This document shows, piece after piece, positions 1 through 57,185 of a DNA stretch of 64,000 bases (position 1 is the stretch's first letter; each line of letters opens with the position of its first letter). Under the pieces are notes generated by a model. That model was not told where the DNA came from and did no database searches. It worked only from the letters and a program-made list of their open reading frames with translations. This DNA comes from Escherichia coli (GTDB lineage Bacteria; Pseudomonadota; Gammaproteobacteria; Enterobacterales; Enterobacteriaceae), in assembly GCF_013122565.1 (NCBI RefSeq), contig NZ_CP053258.1; one strand, 5' to 3'. Made by a program: the position numbers and the translations under genes.

Positions 1-290
1 TGCTTATCTTTAATCAGGGCTATGATTTCCTGCTCCAGCTCCTCATCTTCGAGCAGCATAATATGCCCTTCAAAGATGGCTTCTTTTTCTTCACCGAACG
101 TTTCACCAGCTTTCGTTTTGATCGTTTCCAGCTGGGCTGATGCCTTGGCACGACCGCTCAGAAAACGTTCAACTTCCTGATCAACCTGGTCGGCAGAAAT
201 TTTTTTCCGGTCAATGACAATTTCGTCTTCTTTCAGAAGCAGAGCTTTACCGAAAGCGATACCCGGGGATGCTAAAATGCCTGAAATCAT
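1..290 (-). CDS. ptsI: PTS enzyme I (phosphoenolpyruvate-protein phosphotransferase), N-terminal part; gene runs off the window start
   Basis: Reverse-complement translation from the ATG at 290-288 reads [30 protein letters not shown]..., the EI N-terminus; sits directly after ptsH on the same strand. Confidence 0.9.
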
Positions 291-334
291 AACCCTACCT
301 TACTTGTGACTGATTTTTAAAAGAACCCGGGAAA

Positions 335-592
335 TTACTCGAGTTCCGCCATCAGTTTAACCAGATGTTCAACCGCTTTCTGCTCGTCTTCGCCTTCTGC
401 GGAGATAGTCACAACGGTACCTTGAGTCAGGCCCAGAGTCTGCAGTTTAAACAGGCTTTTCGCGCTGGCGCTTTTGCCGTTGGAAGTCACAGTAATTTCA
501 GAAGTGAAGCCCTTAGCTTCTTTTACAAACTGGGCAGCAGGGCGGGTGTGCAGACCGTTCGGAGCGGTAATGGTAACTTCTTGCTGGAACAT
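335..592 (-). CDS. ptsH: Phosphocarrier protein HPr
   Basis: 85-aa [32 protein letters not shown]... with active-site His15 context. Confidence 0.97.
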
Positions 593-925
593 TGTATTTC
601 CCCAACTTATAGGTTTAGTGTTGTGGAACTAAAGTCTAGCCTGGCGGTTCGACTTTAGCCTGGATAGTTAGCGCCAGTTTTTAACAGACGCGACGCACGA
701 AGAGCGCAATACAGTCCATTGCTGGCGGGTGTTGACCGCTGACGTTTCGTACGTCATTAAACATTATGCCGCTAAAGGAAGAATTGAACCAAATCATAAA
801 ATCGATTCAGCTTTGGCTTTTCCTGTAACGATTAATTTCGCGCATCAAAATAATTAGTCTGGTTAAATACCAGTTCCGACAGGCTGAATCAATGCCAGGA
901 GGGGCGAAAGTTTGAAGCAGGCCAC

Positions 926-955
926 AAAAAAGCACCTGAAAAGGTGCTTTTTTAC
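926..955 (-). terminator. Rho-independent terminator downstream of cysK
   Basis: Hairpin agcacct/aggtgct flanked by A and T runs just past the cysK stop. Confidence 0.6.
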
Positions 956-975
956 GCATTTTTAACAAGCTGGCA

Positions 976-1947
976 TTACTGTTGCAATTCTTTCTCAGTG
1001 AAGAGATCGGCAAACAATGCGGTGCTTAAATAACGCTCACCCGATGATGGTAGAATAACCACAACATTCTTGTTGGTAAAGCTTTCATCTTCTTGTAGTT
1101 TCAACGCCGCAGCAACAGCTGCTCCAGAAGAGATACCTGCAAGAATACCTTCTTCTTCCATTAGACGACGGGCGGTAGAAATGGCTTCTTCATTGGTGAT
1201 GCCAATGACTTTATCGACCAGCTTGAGATCGAGGTTAGCCGGGATAAAACCAGCGCCAATACCCTGAATTTTATGCGGGCCAGGTTTAATCTCTTCACCT
1301 GCCAGCGCCTGGGCGATAACTGGAGAATCGGTTGGCTCAACGGCGACAGAGATAAGATCGGTCTTGCCTTTAGTGCCTTTAATGTAGCGGCTAACGCCAG
1401 TCAGCGTACCGCCAGTCCCAACGCCAGCAATAAATACATCAACCTGACCGTCGGTATCTTCCCAGATCTCCGGACCGGTGGTTTTTTCGTGAATTTCAGG
1501 GTTTGCCGGATTGCTGAATTGTTGCAGCAGCAGGTATTTATCTGGATTGCTGGCGACAATTTCTTCTGCTTTTTGGATTGCGCCTTTCATGCCTTTAGCA
1601 CCTTCGGTCAGCACCAGGTTTGCACCTAACGCTTTCAGCAGCTTGCGGCGTTCAATACTCATGGTTTCTGGCATGGTCAGGGTAAGTTTGTAACCGCGAG
1701 CGGCAGCGACATAGGCCAGTGCAATCCCGGTATTACCGCTGGTTGGTTCAACCAGTTCAACGCCTGGTTTAAGCACGCCGCGCTTTTCGGCATCCCAAAT
1801 CATGTTGGCACCGATACGGCACTTAACGCTGAAGCTGGGGTTACGAGATTCCACCTTCGCCAGAATGCGTCCGTTACCGATGCGATTCAGGCGAACCAGC
1901 GGCGTGTGACCGATAGTCAGCGAGTTATCTTCAAAAATCTTACTCAT
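976..1947 (-). CDS. cysK: Cysteine synthase A (O-acetylserine sulfhydrylase A)
   Basis: 323-aa [47 protein letters not shown]..., PLP-dependent fold. Confidence 0.97.
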
Positions 1948-2131
1948 GGCCTGTCCTTAACTGTATGAAATTGGGATACAACAGGTAGCATACCCGCTCA
2001 GAGAATATGCGGAAGTAAGGATTTAGCATATCTATATGCAGAAGGGAAATAATGACATGCAAGATGGAATAAGGGGCGGCATAAGCAACCCCTGTTTCAC
2101 ACAAGCGGTTTACAAAATAACCGGTAGATTG

Positions 2132-2893
2132 TTACCGCCACATCGCGTGTTTATCGCGATAGCAATCGACCCACATCGCCGTCGCGCCACAAACGGCAAC
2201 GGGCATGATGAACAGATTAAGCAGAGGGATCATCGTAAACAGGCTGGTTAAAGCACCAAACTGCATATTGGTGATTTTGCGTGTGCGCAGGGCGGTGCGC
2301 ATCTCTTTAAACGGCACTTTGTGGTTATCGAAGGGGTAATCGCAATACTGGATGGCTAACATCCAGGCGCTAAACAGGAACCACAGTACCGGCGCGACGG
2401 TTTGCCCAATACCAGGGATGAAGTAAAGAATTAGCAATACAATTGCGCGCGGCAGATACCAGGCAAATTTTTGCCATTCGCGTTTCATGATTCGCGGCAC
2501 ATCTTTCATGATACCGAAAATCCCGGTATCTGGCGGTGTAGCGCCAGTCAGTCTTGCTTCCAGTTGTTCAGCCAATAAACCGTTAAACGGAGCGGCAATC
2601 CAGTTAGCAATCGTTGAGAAGAAATAGCCAAACACTAACAGCACAGAGATGACAGCCAGAGGCCACAACAGATAGCTCAGCCATTGTAACCAGTCCGGAA
2701 CATAACTCATGAGAGTCGGGATCCAGACATCGAGTTGCGTAAAGAGCCACCAGAATGCGCCCCCCATCAACAAAATATTGACCAGCAGCGGTAAAATAAC
2801 GAAACGCCGAATCCCTGGTTGCGAGACGAGCTTCCAGCCTTGCGCAAAATAGTAAAAACCGCTGCGTGGGGCAGATGTGAATGATGAAACCAT
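2132..2893 (-). CDS. cysZ: Sulfate transporter CysZ
   Basis: 253-aa membrane ORF immediately upstream of cysK on the same strand. Confidence 0.93.
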
Positions 2894-3122
2894 AATCAGG
2901 ATGAGCTCCTTTTGACCAATCCCAGGAAAATTCTGCGTATTTTACCGGGTAATTGCGCAATGGACAGTTAGGATATGTTCGAAAAAACAGCAAAAAGCAC
3001 GATTTCATCTATCTTTGTGCTGTGAAAGTTAATAGTGCACTTGCACTTGAGGTAATCGGCAAATACTCTTAGTGAGTAAATGTTTGCCGTGGTGGCAAGG
3101 TGTTAGAACAACAGAGAATATA

Positions 3123-4121
3123 ATGATGCAGGATTTGCGTCTGATATTAATCATTGTTGGCGCGATCGCCATAATCGCTTTACTGGTACATGGTTTCTGG
3201 ACCAGCCGTAAAGAACGATCTTCTATGTTCCGCGATCGGCCATTAAAACGAATGAAGTCAAAACGTGACGACGATTCTTATGACGAGGATGTCGAAGATG
3301 ATGAGGGCGTTGGTGAGGTTCGAGTTCACCGCGTGAATCATGCCCCGGCTAACGCCCAGGAGCATGAGGCTGCTCGTCCGTCGCCGCAACACCAGTACCA
3401 ACCGCCTTATGCGTCTGCCCAGCCCCGTCAACCGGTCCAGCAGCCGCCTGAAGCGCAGGTACCGCCGCAACATGCTCCGCGTCCAGCGCAGCCGGTGCAG
3501 CAACCCGTGCAGCAGCCTGCCTATCAGCCGCAGCCTGAACAGCCGTTGCAGCAGCCAGTTTCGCCACAGGTCGCATCAGCGCCGCAGCCAGTGCATTCAG
3601 CACCGCAATCGGCACAACAGGCTTTCCAGCCTGCAGAACCCGTAGCGGCACCACAGCCTGAGCCTGTAGTGGAACCGGCTCCAGTTATGGATAAACCGAA
3701 GCGCAAAGAAGCGGTGATTATCATGAACGTCGCGGCGCATCACGGTAGCGAGCTAAACGGTGAACTGCTTCTTAACAGCATTCAACAAGCGGGCTTCATT
3801 TTTGGCGATATGAATATTTACCATCGTCATCTTAGCCCGGATGGCAGCGGCCCGGCGTTATTTAGCCTGGCGAATATGGTGAAACCGGGAACCTTTGATC
3901 CTGAAATGAAGGATTTCACTACTCCGGGTGTCACTATCTTTATGCAGGTACCGTCTTACGGTGACGAGCTGCAGAACTTCAAGCTGATGCTGCAATCTGC
4001 GCAGCATATTGCCGATGAAGTGGGCGGTGTAGTGCTTGACGATCAGCGCCGTATGATGACTCCGCAGAAATTGCGCGAGTACCAGGACATCATCCGCGAA
4101 GTCAAAGACGCCAACGCCTGA
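3123..4121 (+). CDS. zipA: Cell division protein ZipA (FtsZ membrane anchor)
   Basis: ORF 3072-4121; start placed at internal [21 protein letters not shown] (N-terminal TM), P/Q-rich linker, C-terminal FtsZ-binding domain. Confidence 0.93.
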
Positions 4122-4150
4122 TACACTTAAGGCAAATTAACTCCTCTTCG

Positions 4151-4176
4151 AACCCCCGCTTGTCGGGGGTTTTTAG
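4151..4176 (+). terminator. Rho-independent terminator after zipA
   Basis: cccccg-cttgt-cggggg hairpin followed by tttt. Confidence 0.6.
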
Positions 4177-4182
4177 CATTGA

Positions 4183-6207
<2,025 letters not shown>

Positions 6208-6208
6208 G

Positions 6209-6427
6209 ATGGAAAAAGAGCAGCTGATTGAAATAGCCAATACGATAATGCCGTTTGGCAAATACAAAGGGCGTCGCTTAATCGACCTGCCGGAGGAGTA
6301 TCTGCTGTGGTTTGCCCGCAAAGATGAGTTCCCGGCAGGGAAGCTCGGTGAGCTAATGCAAATCACGCTGCTGATTAAAACCGAGGGGCTGACGCAACTG
6401 GTCCAGCCCCTGAAGCGTCCGCTTTAA
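6209..6427 (+). CDS. ypeB: DUF3820-family small protein YpeB
   Basis: ORF 6110-6427 overlaps the ligA 3' end; start placed at MEKEQLIEIANTIMPFGKYKGRRL one base after the ligA stop. Confidence 0.8.
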   Translation: MEKEQLIEIANTIMPFGKYKGRRLIDLPEEYLLWFARKDEFPAGKLGELMQITLLIKTEGLTQLVQPLKRPL

Positions 6428-7422
6428 GCTTTATCGGCGCTGCTTTCCTGCTGCGCCTGTAACTGTTCGGTCTGGCGTTTGTATCGACGCGCCAGCACCG
6501 CACAGACCATCAATTGGATCTGATGGAAAATCATCAGGGGCAGCACCATCATACCGATCACCGATGTGGGGAACAGAATGTTTGCCATCGGGATGCCATT
6601 TGCCAGACTCTTTTTCGAACCACAAAAGACGATAGTAATTTCATCTGCTTTATTGAAGCCCAGTCGGCGTGCCATAAAGACGTTAACTACAATCACGATA
6701 GCCAGAAGAACGCAGCTGGCCACCACGATAAACAGCAATGATCCCCAGCCAACTTTATGCCAGATACCATTAACGACGGCTTCGCTGAACGCTGTATAAA
6801 CCACCAACAGAATGGACGTCTGGTCAGTTTTCGCAATCCATTTTTTATTGCGCGACACCCAGTCACCAATCCACGGCCGGGAAAGATGCCCTAACACAAA
6901 CGGCAGCAACAGTTGCAGCATAATTTTACCGACCTGCTCAAGGCTGCCCCCTGCACCGTGAACATTCATCACCAGGCCAACCAACAATGGTGAAAGGAAA
7001 ATCCCCAGCAGGCTGGATGCCGACGCAGAACAAACCGCCGCCGCGACGTTACCGCCCGCCATTGACGTGAAGGCGATTGCAGACTGCACGGTCGCGGGGA
7101 GAATGCACAAGTAGAGAAAACCGGAGTAGAGCATCGGGTCGACATTTACCGGTTTCCACCAGGCAAACAGCACGCCCAGAATCGGAAACAGCACGAAGGT
7201 GCTGCACATTACCCACAAATGCAGTCGCCAGTGACCACCGCCAGCAATAATCGCCTCACGCGACAACTTCGCGCCGTGCATAAAGAACAGCAGGGCAATC
7301 GCTGCGGTGGTCAGATTTTCAAAGAAGGGGACGAAATCGCCTCTGGCCGGAAAGAAAGAGGCCAACAACACCACCGTGATCAGGGTTAAGGTGAAAGGAT
7401 CGAGGATACGAAAAAGTTTCAT
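6424..7422 (-). CDS. yfeH: Putative bile acid:Na+ symporter-family (BASS) transporter YfeH
   Basis: 332-aa polytopic membrane ORF MKLFRILDPFTLTLITVVLLASFFPARGDF... Confidence 0.88.
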   Translation of the reverse strand: MKLFRILDPFTLTLITVVLLASFFPARGDFVPFFENLTTAAIALLFFMHGAKLSREAIIAGGGHWRLHLWVMCSTFVLFPILGVLFAWWKPVNVDPMLYSGFLYLCILPATVQSAIAFTSMAGGNVAAAVCSASASSLLGIFLSPLLVGLVMNVHGAGGSLEQVGKIMLQLLLPFVLGHLSRPWIGDWVSRNKKWIAKTDQTSILLVVYTAFSEAVVNGIWHKVGWGSLLFIVVASCVLLAIVIVVNVFMARRLGFNKADEITIVFCGSKKSLANGIPMANILFPTSVIGMMVLPLMIFHQIQLMVCAVLARRYKRQTEQLQAQQESSADKA

Positions 7423-7465
7423 AAAGACTCCAGATGATCGATGCTTTCATTGTGCGTTGTTCTGA

Positions 7466-7494
7466 TTGATAAATAAAACTGAATTGCTTATCAA
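7466..7494. promoter_or_regulatory. Inverted repeat TTGATAA-N15-TTATCAA upstream of yfeH; candidate operator
   Basis: Palindromic arms read directly in sequence about 45-70 bp upstream of the yfeH start; function inferred. Confidence 0.25.
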
Positions 7495-8050
7495 TTTGTG
7501 CGCGAGGAGTGTGAGTGAGTTGCTCGCTCGCTTCGACTGGTTGGCAGAGCGGGGGAGGATATCCCGGATGAGACAAATAAGACGTTCGACAAGAGAATCA
7601 GGTGACTACAGAAAAAATCACAGGATGTTATTACTGCTGATGTTCATGTCGGTTTTCGCGTTATCAGAACTGGTTTTAGAACTGCTATTTAATCGATAAT
7701 GCCATTCTGCAGGAAAGCTTTACCTACTTTATTATTTGCGGTGTGGTAAAACCTGGTCACCAGAGGCAGGTTTAATACCAGACGCTGTCTTTTATCAGAT
7801 ATCCCATGTAAATAATAAATGCAATGAATATTAATTCATTATGTATTTATTTTGTGATTGTTTGGTGTTACTAGTTTGTTGGACAAATAACAACTCTAAC
7901 TAATACATAAACCTTGCATAGTGACAGAGTATCGATCTGAATGTTTTCAACATTGATATCAAATTGCAATTGATATCCGTGGTAAAAAGTATTGGTAAAT
8001 TTGATGAATTTCCGGATATTTAAAGGGGCGGCTCAAAGACGAAGGGGAAG

Positions 8051-9307
8051 ATGGTGAATCTAAAACTACAGTTAAAAGTTCTTTCATTTCTGCAATTCTT
8101 TTTGTGGGGAAGTTGGCTCAACACATTCGGTTCTTATATGTTTATCACGCTGCGTTTTAAGGGCGAAGATATAGGCGCAGTCTACAGTACACTGGGTATC
8201 GCAGCATTAATAACATCAACGTTATTTGGTATCGTGGCCGATAAATGGATTAGTGCTAAATGGATATATGCCGCTTGTCATTTATTTGGCGCGATAACAT
8301 TATTTATCGCAGCATCGGTTACCACGCCTTCGGCAATGTTCATTGTCATTTTACTTAACTCTCTTGTGTATATGCCAACACTCGGTTTGAGTAATACAAT
8401 TTCCTATTACCGCCTACAAACAGCGGGGATGGATATTGTGACAGAATTTCCGCCAATCCGTATCTGGGGCACGATTGGATTTATTGTCGCAATGTGGGCG
8501 GTTAGCCTGGCTGGTTTTGAATTAAGTCATATGCAATTATATATCGGTGCGGCGGCTTCATTAGGCTTGAGCCTGTTCACGTTGACTTTACCAACTGTAC
8601 CAGTGGCGAAATCTAACCAGGCGCAAGGAATGATAGATGTTCTCGGATTGCGTGCATTTACACTGTTTAAAAACAGCAAAATGGCGATTTTCTTTATCTT
8701 TGCCATGCTGCTCGGGGCAGAGTTACAAATTACCGGGATGTTTGGTAATACATTTCTCCACAGCTTTGAGAGCGTTCCAGAGTTTACCAATAGTTTTGTT
8801 GTTACCCATGCTTCTATTCTGTTATCAATTTCTCAGATATCCGAAGTCTGTTTCATTCTTGCCATTCCTTTTTTCCTGAAAAAATACGGTATCAAAAATG
8901 TCATGCTGATGAGCATGGTGGCCTGGATGCTGCGTTTTGGTTTATTCGCTTATGGCGATCCTTCATTCGGTGGTACCATTCTGTTAATTCTTTCGATGAT
9001 TGTTTATGGCTGTGCTTTTGACTTCTTCAATATATCTGGCTCGGTATTTGTTGAACAAGAAGTTGATCCATCGATTCGTAACAGCGCTCAGGGCGTTTTC
9101 CTGATGATGGCCAATGGTTTTGGTTGTATTCTGGGCGGTTTTATCAGTGGTAAAGTCGTCGATTATTTAACAACGGATGGCAATCCACAGTGGTCAACCA
9201 TTTGGCTGGTATTTGCCGGATATTCACTGGTTCTGGCTCTCGCATTTATGGTGTTGTTTAAATATAAACACAACGGTAACCCGACAACGTCCGGTCATTT
9301 CGCCTGA
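8051..9307 (+). CDS. Nucleoside:H+ symporter (NHS family), NupG/XapB paralogue
   Basis: 418-aa 12-TM ORF MVNLKLQLKVLSFLQFFLWGSWL...; by recollection closer to NupG than to the XapB encoded 2 kb downstream; AT-rich; GTG at 8054 is an alternative start. Confidence 0.85.
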   Translation: MVNLKLQLKVLSFLQFFLWGSWLNTFGSYMFITLRFKGEDIGAVYSTLGIAALITSTLFGIVADKWISAKWIYAACHLFGAITLFIAASVTTPSAMFIVILLNSLVYMPTLGLSNTISYYRLQTAGMDIVTEFPPIRIWGTIGFIVAMWAVSLAGFELSHMQLYIGAAASLGLSLFTLTLPTVPVAKSNQAQGMIDVLGLRAFTLFKNSKMAIFFIFAMLLGAELQITGMFGNTFLHSFESVPEFTNSFVVTHASILLSISQISEVCFILAIPFFLKKYGIKNVMLMSMVAWMLRFGLFAYGDPSFGGTILLILSMIVYGCAFDFFNISGSVFVEQEVDPSIRNSAQGVFLMMANGFGCILGGFISGKVVDYLTTDGNPQWSTIWLVFAGYSLVLALAFMVLFKYKHNGNPTTSGHFA

Positions 9308-9361
9308 TACGGAGTTTATCAAAATTAATAATGTTTTATAGGATTCGCAAAAGAGGAAGTT

Positions 9362-10273
9362 ATGGCAAATCAATTGTATAACCAGTGTCGGGTTTATTGT
9401 GCACCCTGGCGATTAGATGCTTTAAATTTAAATGATATCATTGATCAATGGATTGACGAGGGGCTGTTGCCGCCCCTGATCCATACTTTTCTTCCATATC
9501 GCGATGATGCCGGTGCCTCCAGTGAAGAAGAGATTTTTGTTAACGATGTCGCGAATATGGATAACAGTGTTGGGGTTATCGGTTATTTCGATGGTGGAAC
9601 CTATGATTCCGGTTATGCATGGGCTTTAGGGATGCCTGTTCACCTGGTAACGACAGACTTTCTTATATGGGCAGCGGGGAATTCTTCAGAGTTTTATCCT
9701 ATAAGTAAGCTGATGAATTATGTGGCAAAAGTGGTTTCTGTGTCAGATTCCGATACCAGTATCAGCAATTATCGTGAACAAACCGACGATATCATCAAGC
9801 GTGCGTTGCAAATTTTTCAACAAAATTTAATCGCCGACTTCGGCACGACGATTAATCCAGCAGTACCGGTTACTCCATTGCCGATTGAGTATGACTACTA
9901 TATTGATCCTAACTTTATGTATACCGAACCCTCTCGGGACTTACTGGTGAAGATCAAAGATGCGATCATTAGTGCAGGTAAGACTTTCATCGTTGGCGAC
10001 AACATGAATGATATTGCGACTGATATTGATAACTTAAGAAAATCCAGACAGGCCATCTTTTATTCCGATACCTTTGAGCCGAATGTTGACACCGGCATTA
10101 TGAATGGTATTGCCTATGCATTAGGACAGCAATCGATTATTTATTGTAGCAAGCAACAAAAATATCAATCTGCGCTCGCGACAGATTATTTAAATTTAAT
10201 GATTACCTGGTCGTCAACGGTGGCGCATTCATTTGCGGAACTTGAAACATTGATTGGTAACACAGAAAAATAA
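9362..10273 (+). CDS. Hypothetical protein with two repeats of a nucleoside 2-deoxyribosyltransferase-like (SLOG-like) motif
   Basis: 303-aa ORF; motif VIGYFDGGTYDSGYAWALGMPVHLV in the first half and AIFYSDTFEPNVDTGIMNGIAYALGQQSIIY in the second; N-terminal VYCAPW resembles the NDT IYFGAGWF motif; family assignment by eye only. Confidence 0.4.
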   Translation: MANQLYNQCRVYCAPWRLDALNLNDIIDQWIDEGLLPPLIHTFLPYRDDAGASSEEEIFVNDVANMDNSVGVIGYFDGGTYDSGYAWALGMPVHLVTTDFLIWAAGNSSEFYPISKLMNYVAKVVSVSDSDTSISNYREQTDDIIKRALQIFQQNLIADFGTTINPAVPVTPLPIEYDYYIDPNFMYTEPSRDLLVKIKDAIISAGKTFIVGDNMNDIATDIDNLRKSRQAIFYSDTFEPNVDTGIMNGIAYALGQQSIIYCSKQQKYQSALATDYLNLMITWSSTVAHSFAELETLIGNTEK

Positions 10274-10285
10274 TAGTTAATTTTA

Positions 10286-10328
10286 CTGATTATCAGGTGA
10301 GTGATTGCCTGATAATCAGCTTTTTGTT
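10286..10328 (+). terminator. Rho-independent terminator after the 303-aa ORF
   Basis: Perfect 12-bp inverted repeat ctgattatcagg / cctgataatcag with 10-nt loop, followed by cttttt. Confidence 0.65.
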
Positions 10329-10501
10329 AGCCACCAAAGAAAAATATACTGCCGTTATATTTCTCTGCCGGGGAACGATATGATCGATTTCAAAATTATA
10401 TTGAATATCTCTGGAAAATGTATTGGTCACTCGCGACTTTTTCTCGCTATAAAAAAATGTGACTCAGATCTAACGCATAATGCTTATTACAAGGACTTGC
10501 C

Positions 10502-11335
10502 ATGACCCAATCTCATTTTTCACAAAACCCGTGGTATTGCGCAGATATCATTCGTCGTCATAAACCAGACTTTACCCCACGCGTTGCGTTTATTTTGGGT
10601 TCGGGACTGGGAGCGCTGGCTGAACAAATAGAAGACGCAGTTGCCATTTCTTATAGCGATTTGCCGGGGTTTCCGGTGAGCACCGTACACGGCCATGCAG
10701 GAGAGTTGGTCCTCGGCGTGCTTTCTGGTGTGCCTGTAGCCTGCATGAAAGGTCGCGGTCATTTTTATGAGGGCCGGGGAATGACTGTCATGACTGATGC
10801 TATTCGCACGTTCAAGTTGCTGGGCTGTGAATTGTTGTTCTGCACTAACGCTGCAGGTTCGCTTCGCCCGGAAGTAGGGGCGGGTAGTCTGGTTGCGCTG
10901 AAAGATCACATTAATACGATGCCAGGCACACCGATGACAGGCCTTAATGATGAGCGTTTTGGTGAACGTTTTTTCTCATTAGCGAATGCTTACGATGCTG
11001 ATTACCGCGCCGTTTTACAAACCGTCGCGCATGAAGAAGGTTTTCCGCTGACAGAAGGGGTTTTTGTTTCTTATCCGGGGCCGAACTTCGAAACGGCGGC
11101 AGAAATTCGCATGATGCAGCTGTTTGGTGGCGACGTAGTAGGTATGTCTGTAGTGCCTGAAGTGATTAGCGCACGTCATTGCGAAATGAAAGTCGTTGCC
11201 GTGTCAGCAATAACCAACATGGCGGAAGGCTTAAGCGATGTGAAATTGTCGCATGCCCAAACCCTGGCTGCAGCAGAGTTATCACGACAAAACTTTATTA
11301 ATTTGATTTGCGGATTCTTACGCAAAATCGCCTGA
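10502..11335 (+). CDS. xapA: Xanthosine phosphorylase (purine nucleoside phosphorylase II)
   Basis: 277-aa ORF MTQSHFSQNPWYCADIIRRHKPDFTPRVAFILGSGLG..., PNP/MTAP fold. Confidence 0.93.
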   Translation: MTQSHFSQNPWYCADIIRRHKPDFTPRVAFILGSGLGALAEQIEDAVAISYSDLPGFPVSTVHGHAGELVLGVLSGVPVACMKGRGHFYEGRGMTVMTDAIRTFKLLGCELLFCTNAAGSLRPEVGAGSLVALKDHINTMPGTPMTGLNDERFGERFFSLANAYDADYRAVLQTVAHEEGFPLTEGVFVSYPGPNFETAAEIRMMQLFGGDVVGMSVVPEVISARHCEMKVVAVSAITNMAEGLSDVKLSHAQTLAAAELSRQNFINLICGFLRKIA

Positions 11336-11392
11336 AAACAATAAAAATGGCCTCGCGGATGGGGCCATCTCTCTGCGATAAGGAAACGAAAA

Positions 11393-12640
11393 ATGAATAT
11401 CGCAACGCGTTTAAAGGTAATGTCTTTCTTACAATATTTTATCTGGGGGAGTTGGTTAGTTACCCTCGGATCTTACATGATAAACACCTTACATTTTACC
11501 GGGGCTGATGTCGGTATGGCATACAGTTCTAAAGGCATTGCGGCCATTATTATGCCAGCCATTATGGGCATTATTGCCGATAAATGGTTACGGGCTGAAC
11601 GTACCTATATGCTGTGTCACTTAATTTGTGCCGGGGTGCTTTTTTATGCCGCCTCCGTAACTGAACCGAATATGATGTTCTGGGTGATGTTGCTTAACGC
11701 GATGGCTTTCATGCCCACGATTGCGTTATCCAACAGTGTTTCCTATTCGTGCCTGGCGCAGGCCGGATTAGACCCAGTCACCAGTTTTCCGCCAATCCGT
11801 GTTTATGGCACCGTGGGATTTATTGTCGCAATGTGGCTGGTGAGTTTATTGCATCTGGAGTTAAGTAGTGTGCAGTTGTATATCGCTTCTGGAGCATCTT
11901 TAGTGTTAGCGATCTATGCATTAACATTACCGAAAATTCCAGTGGCGGAACATAAAGCCAGTACGACGCTTTCCAGTAAATTAGGCCTGGATGCGTTTGT
12001 GTTATTTAAAAATCCGCGTATGGCGATTTTCTTTTTATTTGCTATGTTATTAGGTGCGGTACTGCAAATTACTAACGTTTTTGGTAATCCTTTCCTGCAT
12101 GACTTTGCCCGCAATCTTGAGTTTGCTGATAGCTTCGTGGTGAAATATCCATCCATTTTGCTCTCGGTTTCACAAATGGCGGAAGTCGGCTTCATTCTTA
12201 CCATTCCATTCTTCCTGAAGCGTTTTGGCATCAAAACCGTCATGTTGATGAGTATGGTAGCGTGGACGTTACGCTTTGGCTTCTTTGCCTTTGGCGACCC
12301 ATCGGCAGGTGGCTTTGTATTATTGTTGTTGTCGATGATTGTGTATGGCTGCGCGTTCGACTTTTTCAATATCTCCGGTTCAGTGTTTGTCGAGCAAGAA
12401 GTGGACTCCAGGATCCGCGCCAGCGCTCAGGGTTTATTTATGACTATGGTCAATGGCGTTGGGGCGTGGATTGGTTCTCTTCTGAGTGGCATGGCAGTTG
12501 ACTATTTCACGGTTGATGGCGTGAAAGACTGGCAAACCATCTGGCTAGTATTTGCTGCGTATGCACTGGCCTTAGCGGTGATTTTTGCCCTGTTCTTCCG
12601 TTATAAGCATGAACCTGATAAATGGCGCAGAAATCATTGA
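11393..12640 (+). CDS. xapB: Xanthosine permease (NHS family)
   Basis: 415-aa ORF MNIATRLKVMSFLQYFIWGSWLVTLGSYMINTLHFTG... directly downstream of xapA. Confidence 0.92.
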   Translation: MNIATRLKVMSFLQYFIWGSWLVTLGSYMINTLHFTGADVGMAYSSKGIAAIIMPAIMGIIADKWLRAERTYMLCHLICAGVLFYAASVTEPNMMFWVMLLNAMAFMPTIALSNSVSYSCLAQAGLDPVTSFPPIRVYGTVGFIVAMWLVSLLHLELSSVQLYIASGASLVLAIYALTLPKIPVAEHKASTTLSSKLGLDAFVLFKNPRMAIFFLFAMLLGAVLQITNVFGNPFLHDFARNLEFADSFVVKYPSILLSVSQMAEVGFILTIPFFLKRFGIKTVMLMSMVAWTLRFGFFAFGDPSAGGFVLLLLSMIVYGCAFDFFNISGSVFVEQEVDSRIRASAQGLFMTMVNGVGAWIGSLLSGMAVDYFTVDGVKDWQTIWLVFAAYALALAVIFALFFRYKHEPDKWRRNH

Positions 12641-12716
12641 CTCACTGATGTAAACAGGGTTTTCCTTGATTGCAATGTGCTAAGTTTGCAGCCTTACCCA
12701 TACCGCGTGGAGCGCA

Positions 12717-13607
12717 ATGATTATGGAAGGTACGCATCGTATTGATCTCAAGTTATTGCGCTATTTTCTTGCGGTCGCAGAAGAACTTCACTTTGGGCGG
12801 GCCGCTGCGCGGCTGAATATGTCGCAACCGCCATTAAGTATTCATATTAAAGATCTGGAGCAACAGTTGGGCACGTTGCTGTTCGTTCGTCATTCGCGCA
12901 GTGTGGCGCTCACTCATGCGGGGAAAATTTTACTGGAAGAGTCACGTCGTCTGCTGGCTAATGCCAGTCAGGCGTTGGCACGAGTAGAACAGATCGGTCG
13001 TGGTGAGGCAGGGCGCATTGAGCTGGGCGTGGTGGGAACCGCAATGTGGGGGCGAATGCGTCCGGTAATGCGGCGGTTTTTGAAAGAGTGCCCTAATGTT
13101 CATGTCTCATTTCGTGAAAAATCACCAGGGATGCAAATGGCATTGCTCGAGCGGCGGGAGCTGGACGCGGGTATCTGGCGGATGGCAATTGAACCCACGA
13201 CGGGATTTACCAGTCTGCGATTACACGAATCTTCGTTTTTGGTGGCGATACCGGAAGATCATCATCTGGCTTGCGAAAACGCTATCCCGTTAATGGCATT
13301 ACGCAATGAATACTTTGTGACGCTGCCATCGGTCCATTCCGACTGGGCGTTTTTACAGCGTGTCTGTCAGCAGGCAGGGTTTTCACCGATGATCGTTCGG
13401 GAGGCCGTAGAACCGCAAACCGTACTGGCGATGATCAGTATGGGGCTGGGTGTGACATTAATGGCAGATAGCTATGCCCAAATGAGCTGGCCGGGTGTGG
13501 TATTTCGTCCACTCGAGGAACGTATTCCAGCAGATTTGTATATTGTTTATGAACAGCAACAGGCAACACCAGCGCTGGAGAGATTAGTTAATGCTTTGAT
13601 AGCATGA
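12717..13607 (+). CDS. xapR: LysR-type transcriptional activator of xapAB
   Basis: 296-aa ORF with N-terminal LysR HTH (LKLLRYFLAVAEELHFGRAAARLNMSQPPLS); start could be the second Met at 12723. Confidence 0.9.
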   Translation: MIMEGTHRIDLKLLRYFLAVAEELHFGRAAARLNMSQPPLSIHIKDLEQQLGTLLFVRHSRSVALTHAGKILLEESRRLLANASQALARVEQIGRGEAGRIELGVVGTAMWGRMRPVMRRFLKECPNVHVSFREKSPGMQMALLERRELDAGIWRMAIEPTTGFTSLRLHESSFLVAIPEDHHLACENAIPLMALRNEYFVTLPSVHSDWAFLQRVCQQAGFSPMIVREAVEPQTVLAMISMGLGVTLMADSYAQMSWPGVVFRPLEERIPADLYIVYEQQQATPALERLVNALIA

Positions 13608-13626
13608 AAGAAGATATCGCAGATAG

Positions 13627-13656
13627 CAAAAAAGCGCCTTTAGGGCGCTTTTTTGC
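13627..13656. terminator. Bidirectional rho-independent terminator between xapR and lysV
   Basis: aaagcgcc-ttta-gggcgcttt hairpin with A run upstream and T run downstream. Confidence 0.6.
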
Positions 13657-13658
13657 AT

Positions 13659-13734
13659 TGGTGGGTCGTGCAGGATTCGAACCTGCGACCAATTGATTAA
13701 AAGTCAACTGCTCTACCAACTGAGCTAACGACCC
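13659..13734 (-). tRNA. lysV: tRNA-Lys (anticodon UUU)
   Basis: Reverse complement reads GGGTCGTTAGCTCAGTTGGTAGAGCAGTTGACTTTTAATCAATTGGTCGCAGGTTCGAATCCTGCACGACCCACCA. Confidence 0.95.
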
Positions 13735-13738
13735 GAAG

Positions 13739-13814
13739 TGGTGGGTGATGACGGGATCGAACCGCCGACCCCCTCCTTGTAAGGGAGGTGCTCTCCCAGC
13801 TGAGCTAATCACCC
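13739..13814 (-). tRNA. valY: tRNA-Val (anticodon UAC)
   Basis: Reverse complement reads GGGTGATTAGCTCAGCTGGGAGAGCACCTCCCTTACAAGGAGGGGGTCGGCGGTTCGATCCCGTCATCACCCACCA. Confidence 0.95.
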
Positions 13815-13860
13815 ACTTCGGTACTTCACATTTTTACAAGAAATTTAGCTGGCGAGAAAG

Positions 13861-13936
13861 TGGTGGGTGATGACGGGATCGAACCGCCGACCCCCTCCTT
13901 GTAAGGGAGGTGCTCTCCCAGCTGAGCTAATCACCC
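13861..13936 (-). tRNA. valX: tRNA-Val (anticodon UAC)
   Basis: Identical copy of the tRNA-Val sequence. Confidence 0.95.
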
Positions 13937-13980
13937 ACTTCTCAATTTCTTGCTACACGGCGGAGACTACATAAAGTAGT

Positions 13981-14056
13981 TGGTGGGTGATGACGGGATC
14001 GAACCGCCGACCCCCTCCTTGTAAGGGAGGTGCTCTCCCAGCTGAGCTAATCACCC
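13981..14056 (-). tRNA. valU: tRNA-Val (anticodon UAC)
   Basis: Identical copy of the tRNA-Val sequence. Confidence 0.95.
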
Positions 14057-14314
14057 CCGCTGTGTGGAGTCGCATTATAGGGAGAGTTCAAAATGAGTCA
14101 ACGCATTTTCTAAAGAAATTGTTCGTTCGTCGTAAATTTAAGCAAGATGATCGCAAAACAGACCGTGTTGCGCAATTTGTCAACGAAAACAATAATGCGT
14201 AAGGTTGCAACCCGAACTACATTGAGGAATCAGGCGGGAGTGATAGAATATCGCCCACTCAATTTTTCCAGGATTTGCCGGTTGTCGGCATCTTTCTAAA
14301 CGTAAGGCCATTTC

Positions 14315-19350: not shown

Positions 19351-19382
19351 AAAAAGCCGGGGAATTATCCCCGGCTTTTTTA
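19351..19382. terminator. Bidirectional terminator between pdeA and nupC
   Basis: aaaaaagccgggg-aatta-ccccggctttttt, perfect hairpin with A and T tracts on both sides. Confidence 0.7.
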
Positions 19383-50295: not shown

Positions 50296-51459
50296 GTGGA
50301 ACAGATTAATTCAAATAAAAAACATTCTAACAGAAGAAAATACTTTTCTTTATTGGCGATAGTTTTATTTATTGCGTTTTCAGGTGCTTATGCCTATTGG
50401 TCAATGGAATTAGAAGACATGATTAGTACAGATGACGCCTATGTCACGGGGAATGCAGATCCAATTTCTGCGCAAGTCTCAGGTAGTGTCACTGTCGTTA
50501 ATCATAAAGATACGAACTACGTTCGACAGGGTGACATTTTAGTTTCACTGGATAAAACTGATGCCACTATCGCACTCAATAAAGCTAAAAATAATCTGGC
50601 AAATATTGTTCGGCAAACGAATAAACTGTACTTACAGGATAAACAATACAGTGCCGAAGTCGCTTCAGCACGTATTCAGTATCAACAATCTTTAGAAGAT
50701 TATAACCGTCGTGTGCCTTTAGCGAAGCAGGGGGTTATTTCAAAAGAAACGCTGGAGCATACCAAAGATACGTTAATAAGTAGCAAAGCGGCATTGAATG
50801 CCGCTATCCAGGCTTATAAAGCGAATAAAGCTTTAGTAATGAACACACCATTAAACCGTCAGCCACAAGTCGTTGAAGCGGCGGATGCAACCAAAGAAGC
50901 CTGGTTGGCGCTTAAACGTACGGATATTAAGAGTCCGGTTACCGGCTATATTGCCCAGAGAAGTGTTCAGGTCGGCGAAACAGTGAGTCCCGGACAATCG
51001 TTAATGGCTGTCGTACCGGCACGTCAAATGTGGGTTAATGCCAACTTTAAAGAAACACAACTCACGGATGTACGGATTGGTCAATCGGTCAATATTATCA
51101 GCGATCTTTATGGTGAGAATGTTGTGTTTCATGGTCGGGTGACAGGGATCAATATGGGAACCGGTAATGCGTTCTCCTTATTACCTGCACAAAATGCGAC
51201 AGGGAACTGGATCAAAATCGTTCAGCGTGTACCGGTTGAAGTTTCTCTTGATCCAAAAGAACTCATGGAACACCCCTTGCGCATTGGTTTATCGATGACT
51301 GCAACTATTGATACGAAGAACGAAGACATTGCTGAGATGCCTGAGCTGGCTTCAACCGTGACGTCCATGCCGGCTTATACCAGTAAGGCTTTAGTTATCG
51401 ATACCAGTCCGATAGAAAAAGAAATTAGCAACATTATTTCGCATAATGGACAACTTTAA
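50296..51459 (+). CDS. emrK: Multidrug efflux membrane fusion protein (EmrA paralogue)
   Basis: 387-aa ORF with single N-terminal TM and HlyD-type coiled-coil / biotinyl-like regions. Confidence 0.93.
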   Translation: MEQINSNKKHSNRRKYFSLLAIVLFIAFSGAYAYWSMELEDMISTDDAYVTGNADPISAQVSGSVTVVNHKDTNYVRQGDILVSLDKTDATIALNKAKNNLANIVRQTNKLYLQDKQYSAEVASARIQYQQSLEDYNRRVPLAKQGVISKETLEHTKDTLISSKAALNAAIQAYKANKALVMNTPLNRQPQVVEAADATKEAWLALKRTDIKSPVTGYIAQRSVQVGETVSPGQSLMAVVPARQMWVNANFKETQLTDVRIGQSVNIISDLYGENVVFHGRVTGINMGTGNAFSLLPAQNATGNWIKIVQRVPVEVSLDPKELMEHPLRIGLSMTATIDTKNEDIAEMPELASTVTSMPAYTSKALVIDTSPIEKEISNIISHNGQL

Positions 51460-52997
51460 TGGCAATTACTAAATCAACTCCGGCACCATTAACCGGTGGG
51501 ACGTTATGGTGCGTCACTATTGCATTATCATTAGCGACGTTTATGCAAATGTTGGATTCCACTATTTCTAACGTCGCAATACCGACAATATCTGGCTTTC
51601 TGGGAGCATCAACAGACGAAGGCACCTGGGTTATCACCTCGTTTGGCGTAGCAAATGCTATTGCGATCCCTGTTACCGGCAGGCTGGCACAAAGAATAGG
51701 CGAATTAAGGTTATTTTTACTTTCAGTCACTTTTTTTTCGCTGTCTTCATTAATGTGTAGTTTATCGACCAATCTTGATGTGCTGATATTTTTTAGAGTC
51801 GTTCAGGGATTAATGGCGGGGCCGTTAATTCCACTGTCACAGAGTTTATTATTAAGGAATTATCCACCAGAAAAAAGAACATTTGCTCTGGCATTATGGT
51901 CTATGACCGTGATTATCGCTCCGATATGTGGGCCGATATTGGGCGGTTATATTTGTGATAACTTTAGCTGGGGTTGGATATTTTTAATCAATGTCCCTAT
52001 GGGGATTATCGTCCTGACATTATGCTTAACCTTACTTAAAGGAAGAGAAACTGAGACTTCACCGGTCAAAATGAATCTACCAGGACTGACCCTGTTAGTG
52101 CTCGGTGTTGGTGGCTTGCAAATTATGCTTGATAAAGGGCGGGATCTGGATTGGTTCAACTCGAGTACAATAATAATATTAACAGTAGTATCAGTTATTT
52201 CTCTGATCTCTTTAGTCATTTGGGAGTCGACCTCAGAGAACCCGATTCTTGACCTCAGTTTGTTTAAGTCCCGTAACTTCACCATTGGTATTGTGAGTAT
52301 CACCTGCGCGTATTTATTTTACTCTGGAGCGATAGTCCTTATGCCGCAGTTACTCCAGGAAACGATGGGGTATAATGCGATATGGGCCGGGCTTGCTTAT
52401 GCGCCCATCGGCATCATGCCACTATTAATTTCACCTTTGATAGGACGTTATGGCAACAAAATTGACATGCGGGTGTTGGTGACATTTAGTTTTTTGATGT
52501 ATGCGGTTTGCTATTACTGGCGTTCTGTGACATTTATGCCAACGATTGATTTTACAGGTATCATTTTGCCGCAGTTTTTTCAGGGATTCGCCGTTGCCTG
52601 TTTCTTTTTACCCTTAACAACAATTTCGTTTTCAGGCTTGCCAGATAATAAATTTGCCAATGCCTCGAGTATGAGTAATTTTTTTCGTACCTTGTCAGGA
52701 TCAGTTGGTACGTCGTTGACAATGACGCTGTGGGGACGACGCGAATCGTTACACCATAGTCAGTTAACAGCAACCATCGATCAATTTAACCCGGTGTTTA
52801 ATTCATCGTCACAAATTATGGATAAATACTATGGTTCGCTTTCAGGAGTTCTTAATGAAATTAATAATGAAATAACCCAGCAGTCACTTTCTATTTCTGC
52901 AAATGAGATTTTCCGTATGGCGGCTATTGCTTTTATCTTACTTACGGTTTTGGTTTGGTTTGCGAAACCGCCGTTTACAGCGAAAGGCGTTGGGTGA
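51459..52997 (+). CDS. emrY: MFS multidrug efflux pump (EmrB paralogue, 14-TM DHA2)
   Basis: 512-aa polytopic ORF whose start overlaps the emrK stop. Confidence 0.93.
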   Translation: MAITKSTPAPLTGGTLWCVTIALSLATFMQMLDSTISNVAIPTISGFLGASTDEGTWVITSFGVANAIAIPVTGRLAQRIGELRLFLLSVTFFSLSSLMCSLSTNLDVLIFFRVVQGLMAGPLIPLSQSLLLRNYPPEKRTFALALWSMTVIIAPICGPILGGYICDNFSWGWIFLINVPMGIIVLTLCLTLLKGRETETSPVKMNLPGLTLLVLGVGGLQIMLDKGRDLDWFNSSTIIILTVVSVISLISLVIWESTSENPILDLSLFKSRNFTIGIVSITCAYLFYSGAIVLMPQLLQETMGYNAIWAGLAYAPIGIMPLLISPLIGRYGNKIDMRVLVTFSFLMYAVCYYWRSVTFMPTIDFTGIILPQFFQGFAVACFFLPLTTISFSGLPDNKFANASSMSNFFRTLSGSVGTSLTMTLWGRRESLHHSQLTATIDQFNPVFNSSSQIMDKYYGSLSGVLNEINNEITQQSLSISANEIFRMAAIAFILLTVLVWFAKPPFTAKGVG

Positions 52998-53104
52998 TGG
53001 TAAAAGGAGGGGGTTATAGCAGGTAAGACCGGGGATCTTAAGTCTGCGCCATTGGCAGCATCGCTCACCCAAGGAAAGGATGGCGATGCTGAATTGAAAA
53101 TTAA

Positions 53105-54433
53105 TTAGTGGCCTTTTGCCAGATATTGCTCCATCTCTTCTTCCGGCACCATTCCACCTCCCGTCGCCCACACCAGATGAGTGGCATTATGCAGTTGTTC
53201 TGCGCTGAAACCGTGCATCTGTTGGTAACTTACTGATGCGCACACGCGCTGAGGCCCGGCCATACCCGCCAGTGCCGAAGGTTCAAGACGAATACCTTCT
53301 TCCTGCGCCAGCCAGCCAAGCATGTCATACATGGTTTGATCGCTAAGGGTGTAGAAGCCATCCAGTAGACGCTCCATTGCCCGCCCGACAAAGCCTGATG
53401 CGCGACCAACTGCAAGGCCATCCGCTGCGGTAAGGTTGTCGATACCAATATCCTGAACAGAAATCTGATCGTGTAATCCTGTATGGACGCCTAACAGCAT
53501 ACAAGGGGAGTGCGTTGGTTCGGCAAAAAAGCAGTGAACATGATCGCCAAATGCCAGTTTAAGCCCGAATGCGACGCCACCAGGACCACCGCCAACACCA
53601 CACGGCAGATAGACAAACAGAGGGTTATCAGCATCGACAATACGACCTTGCTCGGCAAATTGCGCTTTAAGACGCTGGCCTGCGACGGAATACCCAAGGA
53701 ACAACGTGCGGGAATTCTCGTCATCAATAAAGAAACAGTTCGGGTCAGACTGCGCTGCTTTACGTCCTTCCTCGACTGCAACACCATAATCTTGCTCATA
53801 TTCCACGACCGTAACGCCATGGCTGCGCAGTTTCGCTTTTTTCCATGCCCGGGCATCAGCAGACATATGTACTGTCACCTTAAAGCCAATGCGGGCGCTC
53901 ATAATGCCGATTGATAACCCCAGATTTCCGGTTGAGCCCACAGCAATGCTGTATTGGCTAAAGAACTGTTTAAACTCCGGAGAAAGCAGTTTGCTGTAGT
54001 CATCTTCAAGCGTCAGCAACCCCGCTTCCAGAGCCAGTTTTTCTGCATGTGCCAGGACTTCATAAATCCCGCCGCGTGCTTTTATGGAGCCGGAAATGGG
54101 CAAATGGCTATCTTTTTTCAGTAGCAGTTGCCCGCTGATCGGTTGTTGATATTCCTTTTCCAGCCGTTTTTGCATAGCCGGAATGGCAACCAGTTCTGAT
54201 TCAATAATCCCCCCAGTAGCAGCAGTTTCAGGAAATGCTTTTGCCAGATAGGGTGCAAAACGAGATAAGCGCGCATGGGCGTCCTGAACATCCTGTTCGG
54301 TCAGGCCAACATAAGGTAAACCTTCAGCCAATGAGGTCGTGTCAGGATTAAACCAGGTGGTTTCTTTAAGAGCAACCAGATCCTTTACCAACGGATACTG
54401 GGCGATGAGCGAGTTCATTTTAGCGTTTTCCAT
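53105..54433 (-). CDS. dsdA: D-serine dehydratase (ammonia-lyase), PLP-dependent
   Basis: 442-aa [33 protein letters not shown]... with PLP-Lys SGSIKARGG. Confidence 0.96.
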
Positions 54434-54450
54434 AGTACGTCTCTTTGCGC

Positions 54451-55788
54451 TTAGATGATAAATGACAGCAGGAATGTGCCCGCCAGAGCGACGACTGAAG
54501 CGATAAATGTCGCGGTCGTATAGTATTTAAATGTTTCATTGAGCGTAGCGCCGCAATATTGCTTCACCAGCCAGAAAAGCGAGTCCGTAACGATCGTGCA
54601 GCCAATTGCGCCTGAACCGATAGCAATCGCAATAATTTCCGGGCTGATGTCGGGATACAGCGGCAGCATGGGTGCAACAATTGCCGTTGCCCCCATCATT
54701 GCCACGGTAGCGGAGCCCACTGCCGCATGCAGAATAAGAGCCACTAACCAGGCCAGAAGAATCGGGTGCATATGCATATTGGAGAGAATAACTGCCAGCG
54801 TATCAGCGAGACTGCTGCTTTTTAAAATGGCGTTAAATGCGCCTCCGGCCCCGATAATCAGCAAAATATTAGCAATAGAACCGAAGCCATTTTCCGTATG
54901 TGTGAGCATCGTCCCCATGCTCATATGCTGGCGTATACCCAACACATAATAGGCGACAAACACGGCGATAAACATGGCAGTGATAGGGTTGCCAATAAAC
55001 TCAAGCAAGGTATACAAACCACTCTCACGCGCCATATTCAATTCGGCAATCGTTTTAACCAACATCAGCGCAATGGGTAGCAGTATGGTGAATAACGTTG
55101 CGCCTAATGACGGTAGTGTTTTTTCATCGCGAACTTTGAGATCGGCAAACTCTGTTGGTACAGGTTTAAAGGGCAGTCGTTGACCCAGAATTTTAAGGAA
55201 AAGTGGGCCACCGATCAGTGATGCCATCAGCCCAACCAGCAAACCGTAGACGATCACCGAACCGATATCTGCGCCCAGCTTATTGGCAACATATAAAGCA
55301 GCCGGATGTGGAGGAACCACGCAGTGCACTGCCATCAATGCGGTACACAGCGGAATGGCCAGCTTTAACAATGAGGTATTGGTTTTTTTGGCAATTGAAA
55401 AAGCCAGAGGAATCAATAGCACGACGCCCACTTCAACAAACAGCGTGATGCCACAAATCAGGCCAACCAGTACCATAATGACATCAGCTGAAAGCCAGCG
55501 ACAGCGCTGAAGTGTCAGACCAATTCTTTCTGCGGCCCCGGATACTTCCATCATTTTTCCCAGTATCGTGCCAAGGCCGATAACCGCAGCGAGGAAACCC
55601 AGCGTTCCGCCAATTCCACTTTCAATAGCATTTACCATATCCAGTGGCCCCATGCCCATCATCGTTCCCACGAAGAAGCTGGCCAGCAACAGCGCCAGAA
55701 ACGGGTGGAATTTGAACTTCACGATGGTCAGTACAATTAACACGATGCTGATAAGCAGCGTGCTCACAACCCAGATTTGAGAGTGCAT
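54451..55788 (-). CDS. dsdX: D-serine permease (GntP family)
   Basis: 445-aa polytopic ORF directly upstream of dsdA. Confidence 0.93.
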
Positions 55789-56005
55789 ATCTCACCTTCC
55801 CCTGTGATTAACCTGATGATATTGGACAAAAAAACAACGCAGGCTGACAAACGATAAAATTTGCCTTTCACATGAGATAAATTGCATCAAGGGAGTGATT
55901 TACATCTAAAAATGAAGGTGAATTGCGATATGGTTCACTTTAGCTCACCTTACAGCTGAAATTTTGCCGCTATTTTTTTACACTTAAGAGAAAAATGAGG
56001 TGAGT

Positions 56006-56941
56006 ATGGAACCCCTTCGTGAAATAAGAAATCGACTGCTTAACGGCTGGCAACTATCAAAAATGCATACTTTTGAAGTGGCTGCCAGGCATCAGTCCTT
56101 CGCCCTGGCGGCAGAGGAATTGTCGCTGAGCCCCAGTGCGGTAAGTCACCGTATCAATCAGCTGGAAGAAGAATTGGGTATTCAGTTGTTTGTTCGTTCC
56201 CATCGCAAAGTGGAATTAACGCACGAGGGGAAACGCGTTTATTGGGCGCTAAAATCGTCGCTGGATACCCTGAACCAGGAAATTCTTGATATCAAAAATC
56301 AGGAGTTATCGGGAACGTTAACTCTGTATTCCCGGCCCTCTATCGCTCAATGCTGGTTGGTGCCCGCATTAGGTGACTTTACACGCCGCTATCCGTCTAT
56401 TTCGCTCACCGTGCTCACTGGTAATGACAATGTCAATCTGCAACGTGCCGGAATCGATTTGGCAATCTACTTTGATGACGCGCCGTCAGCGCAACTGACT
56501 CATCACTTTCTGATGGATGAAGAAATCCTGCCTGTATGTAGCCCGGAATACGCTCAAAGACATGCTTTAACCAACACGATAATTAACCTGCGCCACTGTA
56601 CGTTGCTCCATGACAGACAGGCATGGAGCAACGACTCCGGAACGGATGAATGGCATAGTTGGGCGCAACATTATGAGGTTAATTTGCCGACATCTTCTGG
56701 AATTGGCTTTGATCGCTCTGATTTAGCCGTTATCGCCGCAATGAATCATGTTGGGGTGGCGATGGGAAGAAAACGCCTGGTACAAAAAAGGCTTGCCAGT
56801 GGTGAGCTCGTCGCGCCGTTTGGCGATATGACGGTGAAATGCCATCAGCATTATTACATCACCACATTACCGGGCAGGCAGTGGCCAAAAATTGAAGCGT
56901 TTATTACCTGGTTAAGAGAACAGGTAAAAACCACTTCATAA
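56006..56941 (+). CDS. dsdC: LysR-type activator of dsdXA
   Basis: ORF 56000-56941; start placed at MEPLREIRN (MSMEPL at 56000 also possible); LysR HTH FEVAARHQSFALAAEELSLSPSAVSHRI. Confidence 0.92.
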   Translation: MEPLREIRNRLLNGWQLSKMHTFEVAARHQSFALAAEELSLSPSAVSHRINQLEEELGIQLFVRSHRKVELTHEGKRVYWALKSSLDTLNQEILDIKNQELSGTLTLYSRPSIAQCWLVPALGDFTRRYPSISLTVLTGNDNVNLQRAGIDLAIYFDDAPSAQLTHHFLMDEEILPVCSPEYAQRHALTNTIINLRHCTLLHDRQAWSNDSGTDEWHSWAQHYEVNLPTSSGIGFDRSDLAVIAAMNHVGVAMGRKRLVQKRLASGELVAPFGDMTVKCHQHYYITTLPGRQWPKIEAFITWLREQVKTTS

Positions 56942-57035
56942 TGAATAAAACTACGAGTTCCGGGTGTGCCTTATTCGGCCTGCTAGTTCGAATTTAATTT
57001 ACGGTTTTTTGTGGTTTTAGGGATAAATACAAGGA

Positions 57036-57110
57036 TGGTGTCCCCTGCAGGAATCGAACCTGCAATTAGCCCTTAGGAGGGGCTCGTTATATCCATTTAA
57101 CTAAGAGGAC
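57036..57110 (-). tRNA. argW: tRNA-Arg (anticodon CCU)
   Basis: Reverse complement reads GTCCTCTTAGTTAAATGGATATAACGAGCCCCTCCTAAGGGCTAATTGCAGGTTCGATTCCTGCAGGGGACACCA. Confidence 0.93.
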
Positions 57111-57185
57111 AATGCGGCATGAGTATACCCGCTAATGGACTGCGGGGTAAGTACGCTGCCGCTCGATTGCTTAAACCCTCGCCAT

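Follow-up and report, generated by a model that had tools for sequence, protein, structure and literature searches.

Gene order around argW

The window analysed here is a 64,000-nt stretch of Escherichia coli contig NZ_CP053258.1. The open reading frames (ORFs) and called genes around the argW site are dsdA, dsdX, dsdC, yfdC, mlaA, yfdF, and fadL, and the features of the argW–dsdC interval are collected in Table 1. ARAGORN called argW as a tRNA-Arg with anticodon CCT. Against the Rfam tRNA model the gene scored 63.4 bits (gathering score 29), and it was identical to K-12 argW at 75/75 aligned positions. The neighboring dsdC encodes a LysR-type protein that is identical to K-12 DsdC at 306 of 311 residues (98%) and ends in a TAA stop codon at 56939–56941 (+). 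Exactly 94 bp (56942–57035) separate this stop from argW. On the other side of the tRNA gene, position 57185 is the final base ahead of the stop codon of yfdC, which ends at 57186 (-). All three dsd genes, dsdC as well as dsdX and dsdA upstream of it, are full length.

Table 1. Features of the argW–dsdC interval and its flanks (positions in the window). The Pfam assignments were made on an identical Logan contig.
Feature	Position	Strand	Basis
dsdA, D-serine ammonia-lyase, intact, 442 aa	53105–54433	-	ORF; Pfam PALP; collinear with K-12
dsdX, D-serine transporter, intact, 445 aa	54451–55788	-	ORF; Pfam GntP_permease; collinear with K-12
dsdC, LysR-type regulator, intact, 311 aa plus stop	56006–56941	+	Translation; K-12 comparison
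Chromosomal spacer, dsdC stop to att core	56942–57034		K-12 alignment
Single 16-nt att core CTGCAGGGGACACCAT, comprising the final 15 nt of argW and one further base; very probable attB	57035–57050	-	
argW, tRNA-Arg(CCU), intact	57036–57110	-	ARAGORN; Rfam; K-12 identity
argW upstream region/yfdC 3' intergenic region, 75 bp	57111–57185		K-12 alignment
yfdC, formate/nitrite transporter family, 310 aa	57186–58118	-	ORF; translation; annotation in matching genomes

No integrase, RDF, or phage genes were found adjacent to argW among the ORFs and called genes. A sequence-only reading of the same DNA had placed the dsdC stop 94 bp from the 3' end of tRNA-Arg(CCU) at 57036 and had noted the lack of an integrase, an att duplication, and phage genes. 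Its coordinates and counts proved exact when compared with the ARAGORN call and the ORFs, and the absences were borne out by the ORFs, the called genes, and the searches for the att core described below.

The 3' end of argW was present once. Its last 25 nt, searched with up to three mismatches, had one match in 64 kb (argW itself), and the 15-mer core, searched with up to two mismatches, also had one (the site itself). Between positions 52000 and 62000, no 16-mer other than the site itself matched the core at 12 or more of 16 positions. Smith–Waterman local alignment of the spacer with argW, direct or inverted, yielded a score of 7, below the means for shuffled spacers (7.5 direct, 7.7 inverted). 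A seed-6 repeat search returned only short matches at chance level. Among the chance-level matches rejected as att remnants was one of 11 nt, in which TGCTAGTTCGA pairs in inverted orientation with the T-arm at 82% identity. The search of the spacer for a partial argW 3' repeat, proposed in the sequence-only reading, therefore recovered no attR remnant and left the reading of the site as empty unchanged.

The spacer was also screened for other content. No consensus promoter or terminator was found in it, its fold was no more stable than those of shuffled sequences (z = −0.08 and +0.60), and it contained no credible Rfam family. The Rfam family 'Plastid-ycf2' gave one weak hit on the opposite strand from argW (24.8 bits; gathering score 65.7), which was rejected as chance.

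Comparison with K-12

The MG1655 record lists the order yfdC, argW, CPS-53, pawZ, spacer, and dsdC, confirming the statement of the sequence-only reading that the CPS-53 (KpLE1) prophage sits between argW and dsdC in K-12. In that genome, argW occupies positions 2466309–2466383, and the 'cryptic prophage CPS-53' (KplE1), a defective element of 10.2 kb, occupies positions 2466369–2476583. CPS-53 contains intS, yfdG, yfdH, yfdI, tail-fibre remnants, yfdK–T, and torI; the yfdG/yfdH/yfdI region encodes a bactoprenol glucose translocase and glucosyl transferases (gtr-like). At the far end, pawZ (2476584–2476598) is a 15-bp pseudo-argW copying the argW 3' end, located 95 bp from dsdC. The 16-nt core CTGCAGGGGACACCAT is present at both ends of CPS-53.

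We joined the K-12 region up to and including the 3' end of argW directly to what follows pawZ, and compared this 'excised' sequence with the window by alignment. The two were collinear base for base and joined exactly across the 16-nt core. Over the aligned stretch, the differences from K-12 were one substitution upstream of argW and, within the spacer, three substitutions and a 1-nt deletion. The deletion falls in an A run and accounts for the spacer length of 94 bp, compared with 95 bp in K-12. The window spacer corresponds to the stretch of chromosomal backbone that runs from pawZ/attR to dsdC in K-12.

When the whole window was compared by BLAST with about 80 kb of K-12 sequence, the picture was the same. 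The K-12 match jumps from 2476584 to 2466384 at window positions 57035–57050, the shared core, and the collinear parts of the window are 97.8–98.4% identical to K-12. No counterpart of K-12 2466385–2476583 (CPS-53 including intS and torI) was found in the window, where the core is single. The flanks are shared and collinear between the window and the MG1655 argW–CPS-53–dsdC region, and K-12 alone has the 10.2-kb prophage and the second core, pawZ. The alignment of the argW–dsdC interval suggested by the sequence-only reading thus returned K-12 minus CPS-53, joined at the core. Together with the uniqueness of the core, it supports that reading's description of the site as 'empty' or 'cleanly excised'.

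Besides CPS-53, the window differs from K-12 in lacking IS186C, in its variant xap region, and in the divergence of its yfdF and fadL regions; no integrase is involved in any of these differences. IS186C, which lies between nupC and pdeA in K-12, is missing at window position ~19360–19371, where the K-12 flanks join directly. At 7486–13614, the K-12 block yfeR-yfeN-xapA-xapB-xapR is replaced by one that encodes a nucleoside permease (8051–9307) and a nucleoside 2-deoxyribosyltransferase (9362–10273), along with divergent xapA, xapB, and LysR/xapR genes that are 70–77% identical to those of K-12. This block adjoins the valU-valX-valY-lysV tRNA cluster, and its arrangement was found in only 11 of 5,426 complete E. 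coli genomes. The YfdF allele (59349–60641, -) is 430 aa long compared with 352 aa in K-12, and had no Pfam match. Its residues ~65–130 appear to be internally duplicated, with two BLASTP segments covering overlapping K-12 residues; in the public collection, an identical protein occurred on just two contigs. Finally, the fadL-yfcZ-fadI region (60273–64000) is 89.5% identical to K-12, compared with ~98% elsewhere in the window, which suggests a block of alleles that is either recombinant or highly divergent.

The att core and the distribution of the undivided site

The core CTGCAGGGGACACCAT matches exactly the sequence annotated as 'attP core' in phages HK620 and Sf6, where it lies between the torI-like xis and int, and it also occurs in an Stx2 prophage record, at the attL in argW. 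Integrases at least 95% identical to IntS are encoded by 23 phage records, which include CUS-3, N7, HF4s, Sf6, IME10, Kapi1, HK633, HK620, and VT2phi_272. KplE1/CPS-53 is bordered by the duplicated 16-nt core at the argW 3' end and is still excisable in vivo (Panis et al., PMC2951348). Phage Kapi1 integrates between yfdC and dsdC (Pick et al., PMC8787464). Its non-lysogen host, E. coli KP7, has an undivided yfdC–tRNA-Arg–dsdC site, and deletion of the core abolishes Kapi1 integration between these genes (PMC8787464). The argW attB of KplE1, HK620, Sf6, and Kapi1 shares the tRNA gene, the 16-nt core, and the yfdC and dsdC flanks with the window, and we found no structural difference from this module in the window attB. 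The core reported for Kapi1 is 17 bp, of which the window matches 16, with C as the base after the core.

Moritz & Welch (2006), as cited in PMC8787464 and PMC4366372, are the source for argW-dsdCXA as a variable recombination-hotspot island of E. coli, in some forms of which csc sucrose genes replace dsdCX. The window represents the same locus with dsdC, dsdX, and dsdA intact and nothing inserted. A csc replacement of dsdCX was rejected for the window because all three genes are full length.

We assessed the frequency of the undivided junction in 5,426 complete RefSeq E. coli genomes using a 151-nt query spanning the spacer, the core, and argW. The junction was undivided in 937 genomes (17%, about one in six); in a separate search, dsdC, argW, and yfdC were contiguous in 915. 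The query was found in two separate places, the K-12-like state with an insert flanked by conserved spacer, in 826 genomes; this number follows from the 6,251 places recorded across 5,425 genomes, with at most two per genome. The remainder, about 3,660 genomes by derivation, have argW without a detectable dsdC-proximal spacer. This fits islands, csc replacement, and deletions at a hypervariable locus (PMC4366372, PMC8787464, PMC7545054). Strains 23CRST029 and 2014C-3075 are examples of genomes with an empty site. An unoccupied argW attB is a common polymorphism that is already known.

To see at the genus level whether the empty junction is ancestral, the GTDB species representatives (one genome per species) were scanned for exact 30-mer matches, and only a contig of Terrisporobacter mayombei was retrieved. 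This contig, from the draft genome of strain DSM 6539 (NZ_JAHZMP010000156.1), is 486 bp long, has 0.8x coverage, and shares 97% identity with the yfdC-argW attB region of E. coli. It is almost certainly E. coli contamination.

Window 1–14100 reaches 99.1% identity to three strains, and over window 14100–64000 the best identity to a complete RefSeq E. coli genome is no more than about 98.0–98.3%. O145:H28 genomes match window 39001–64000 as one unbroken piece. A Logan contig (SRR11451224) is 100% identical to the window over 51006–61941, spanning the junction (10.9 kb), and may come from the same strain, so that it is not fully independent of the window. The DNA seems to come from an Escherichia lineage that has seldom been sampled.

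In XJ5.2, which is closer to the left part of the window than any other complete genome, the argW site is occupied, which means that argW occupancy turns over among relatives. In XJ5.2 (NZ_CP074354.1 1388256–1401528), argW is accompanied by an integrase, followed by a degraded ~12-kb island with a PapB-family regulator, IS3, IS1, a Mu transposase fragment, and a 1,165-aa autotransporter. This genome has lost dsdC, dsdX, and the 5' portion of dsdA by deletion.

State and history of the site

In the window, argW is intact, the core is single, the two chromosomal flanks between which a lysogen has its prophage meet directly at the core, and no phage genes lie adjacent. We are therefore highly confident that the argW 3' end in the window is an unoccupied attB of IntS-family tyrosine integrases. 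Judging from its identity to sites that work experimentally (PMC8787464, PMC2951348), the site is probably competent for integration.

The proposed mechanism follows that of the family. The attB at the argW 3' end is the site that the IntS-family integrases of CPS-53/KplE1, HK620, Sf6, Kapi1, CUS-3, and some Stx2 phages use. Integration would proceed by strand exchange within the 16-nt core common to attP and attB; argW would stay intact, and a second copy of the core would arise. A heterobivalent tyrosine integrase would perform the strand exchange and a TorI-type RDF would direct excision, roles that are established for the family and presumably apply to the strain of the window. As the core is single, no element is integrated. 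The chromosome runs from yfdC through the intact argW and the 94-bp backbone spacer into the intact dsdCXA with no break.

A site that was never occupied and one from which a prophage was precisely excised look identical, because excision by the integrase and RDF regenerates attB without a scar. By default, we infer that the empty state was inherited and did not arise from recent excision. The main alternative is that a recent ancestor held an IntS-family prophage and that precise excision by the integrase and a TorI-type RDF (curing) restored the site. The junction is exactly what such excision would regenerate, in vivo excision of KplE1 has been reported (PMC2951348), and most E. coli genomes have an occupied argW site, the near relative XJ5.2 among them. 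However, no attP, phage DNA, or scar was found in the window, a never-occupied site would look the same, and the empty state is shared by 17% of complete genomes. We consider this history doubtful, although it deserves some weight. The more specific proposal that recent precise curing of an IntS-family phage in a sparsely sampled Escherichia lineage explains the empty site seems to us improbable. If true, it would provide a natural example of reversible lysogeny at the argW hotspot.

Two further explanations fare worse than an inherited empty site or curing. Repeats can in principle collapse assemblies, so that a prophage present in the strain might have been lost when its two att copies were joined. 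Nothing specific points to such an artefact, a 16-bp repeat does not collapse a 10–40-kb element, the Logan contig is identical across the junction, and the same junction is present in the 937 finished genomes, making this explanation highly improbable. Loss of a prophage by non-site-specific deletion, with a degraded remnant left in the spacer, has a precedent in the degraded islands with adjacent deletions known at the site (XJ5.2), but is hardly conceivable here: it is refuted by the alignment, in which the spacer is the K-12 attR-to-dsdC backbone apart from the few differences given above, no phage-derived or att-like sequence is present in the spacer, and dsdCXA and argW are intact.

The unoccupied attB that we favor has little importance beyond annotation, argW being a textbook tRNA-linked integration hotspot. 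For the strain itself, it indicates a non-lysogen at argW whose D-serine utilisation operon is intact and which could serve as a recipient for seroconverting or Stx2 phages of the IntS family.
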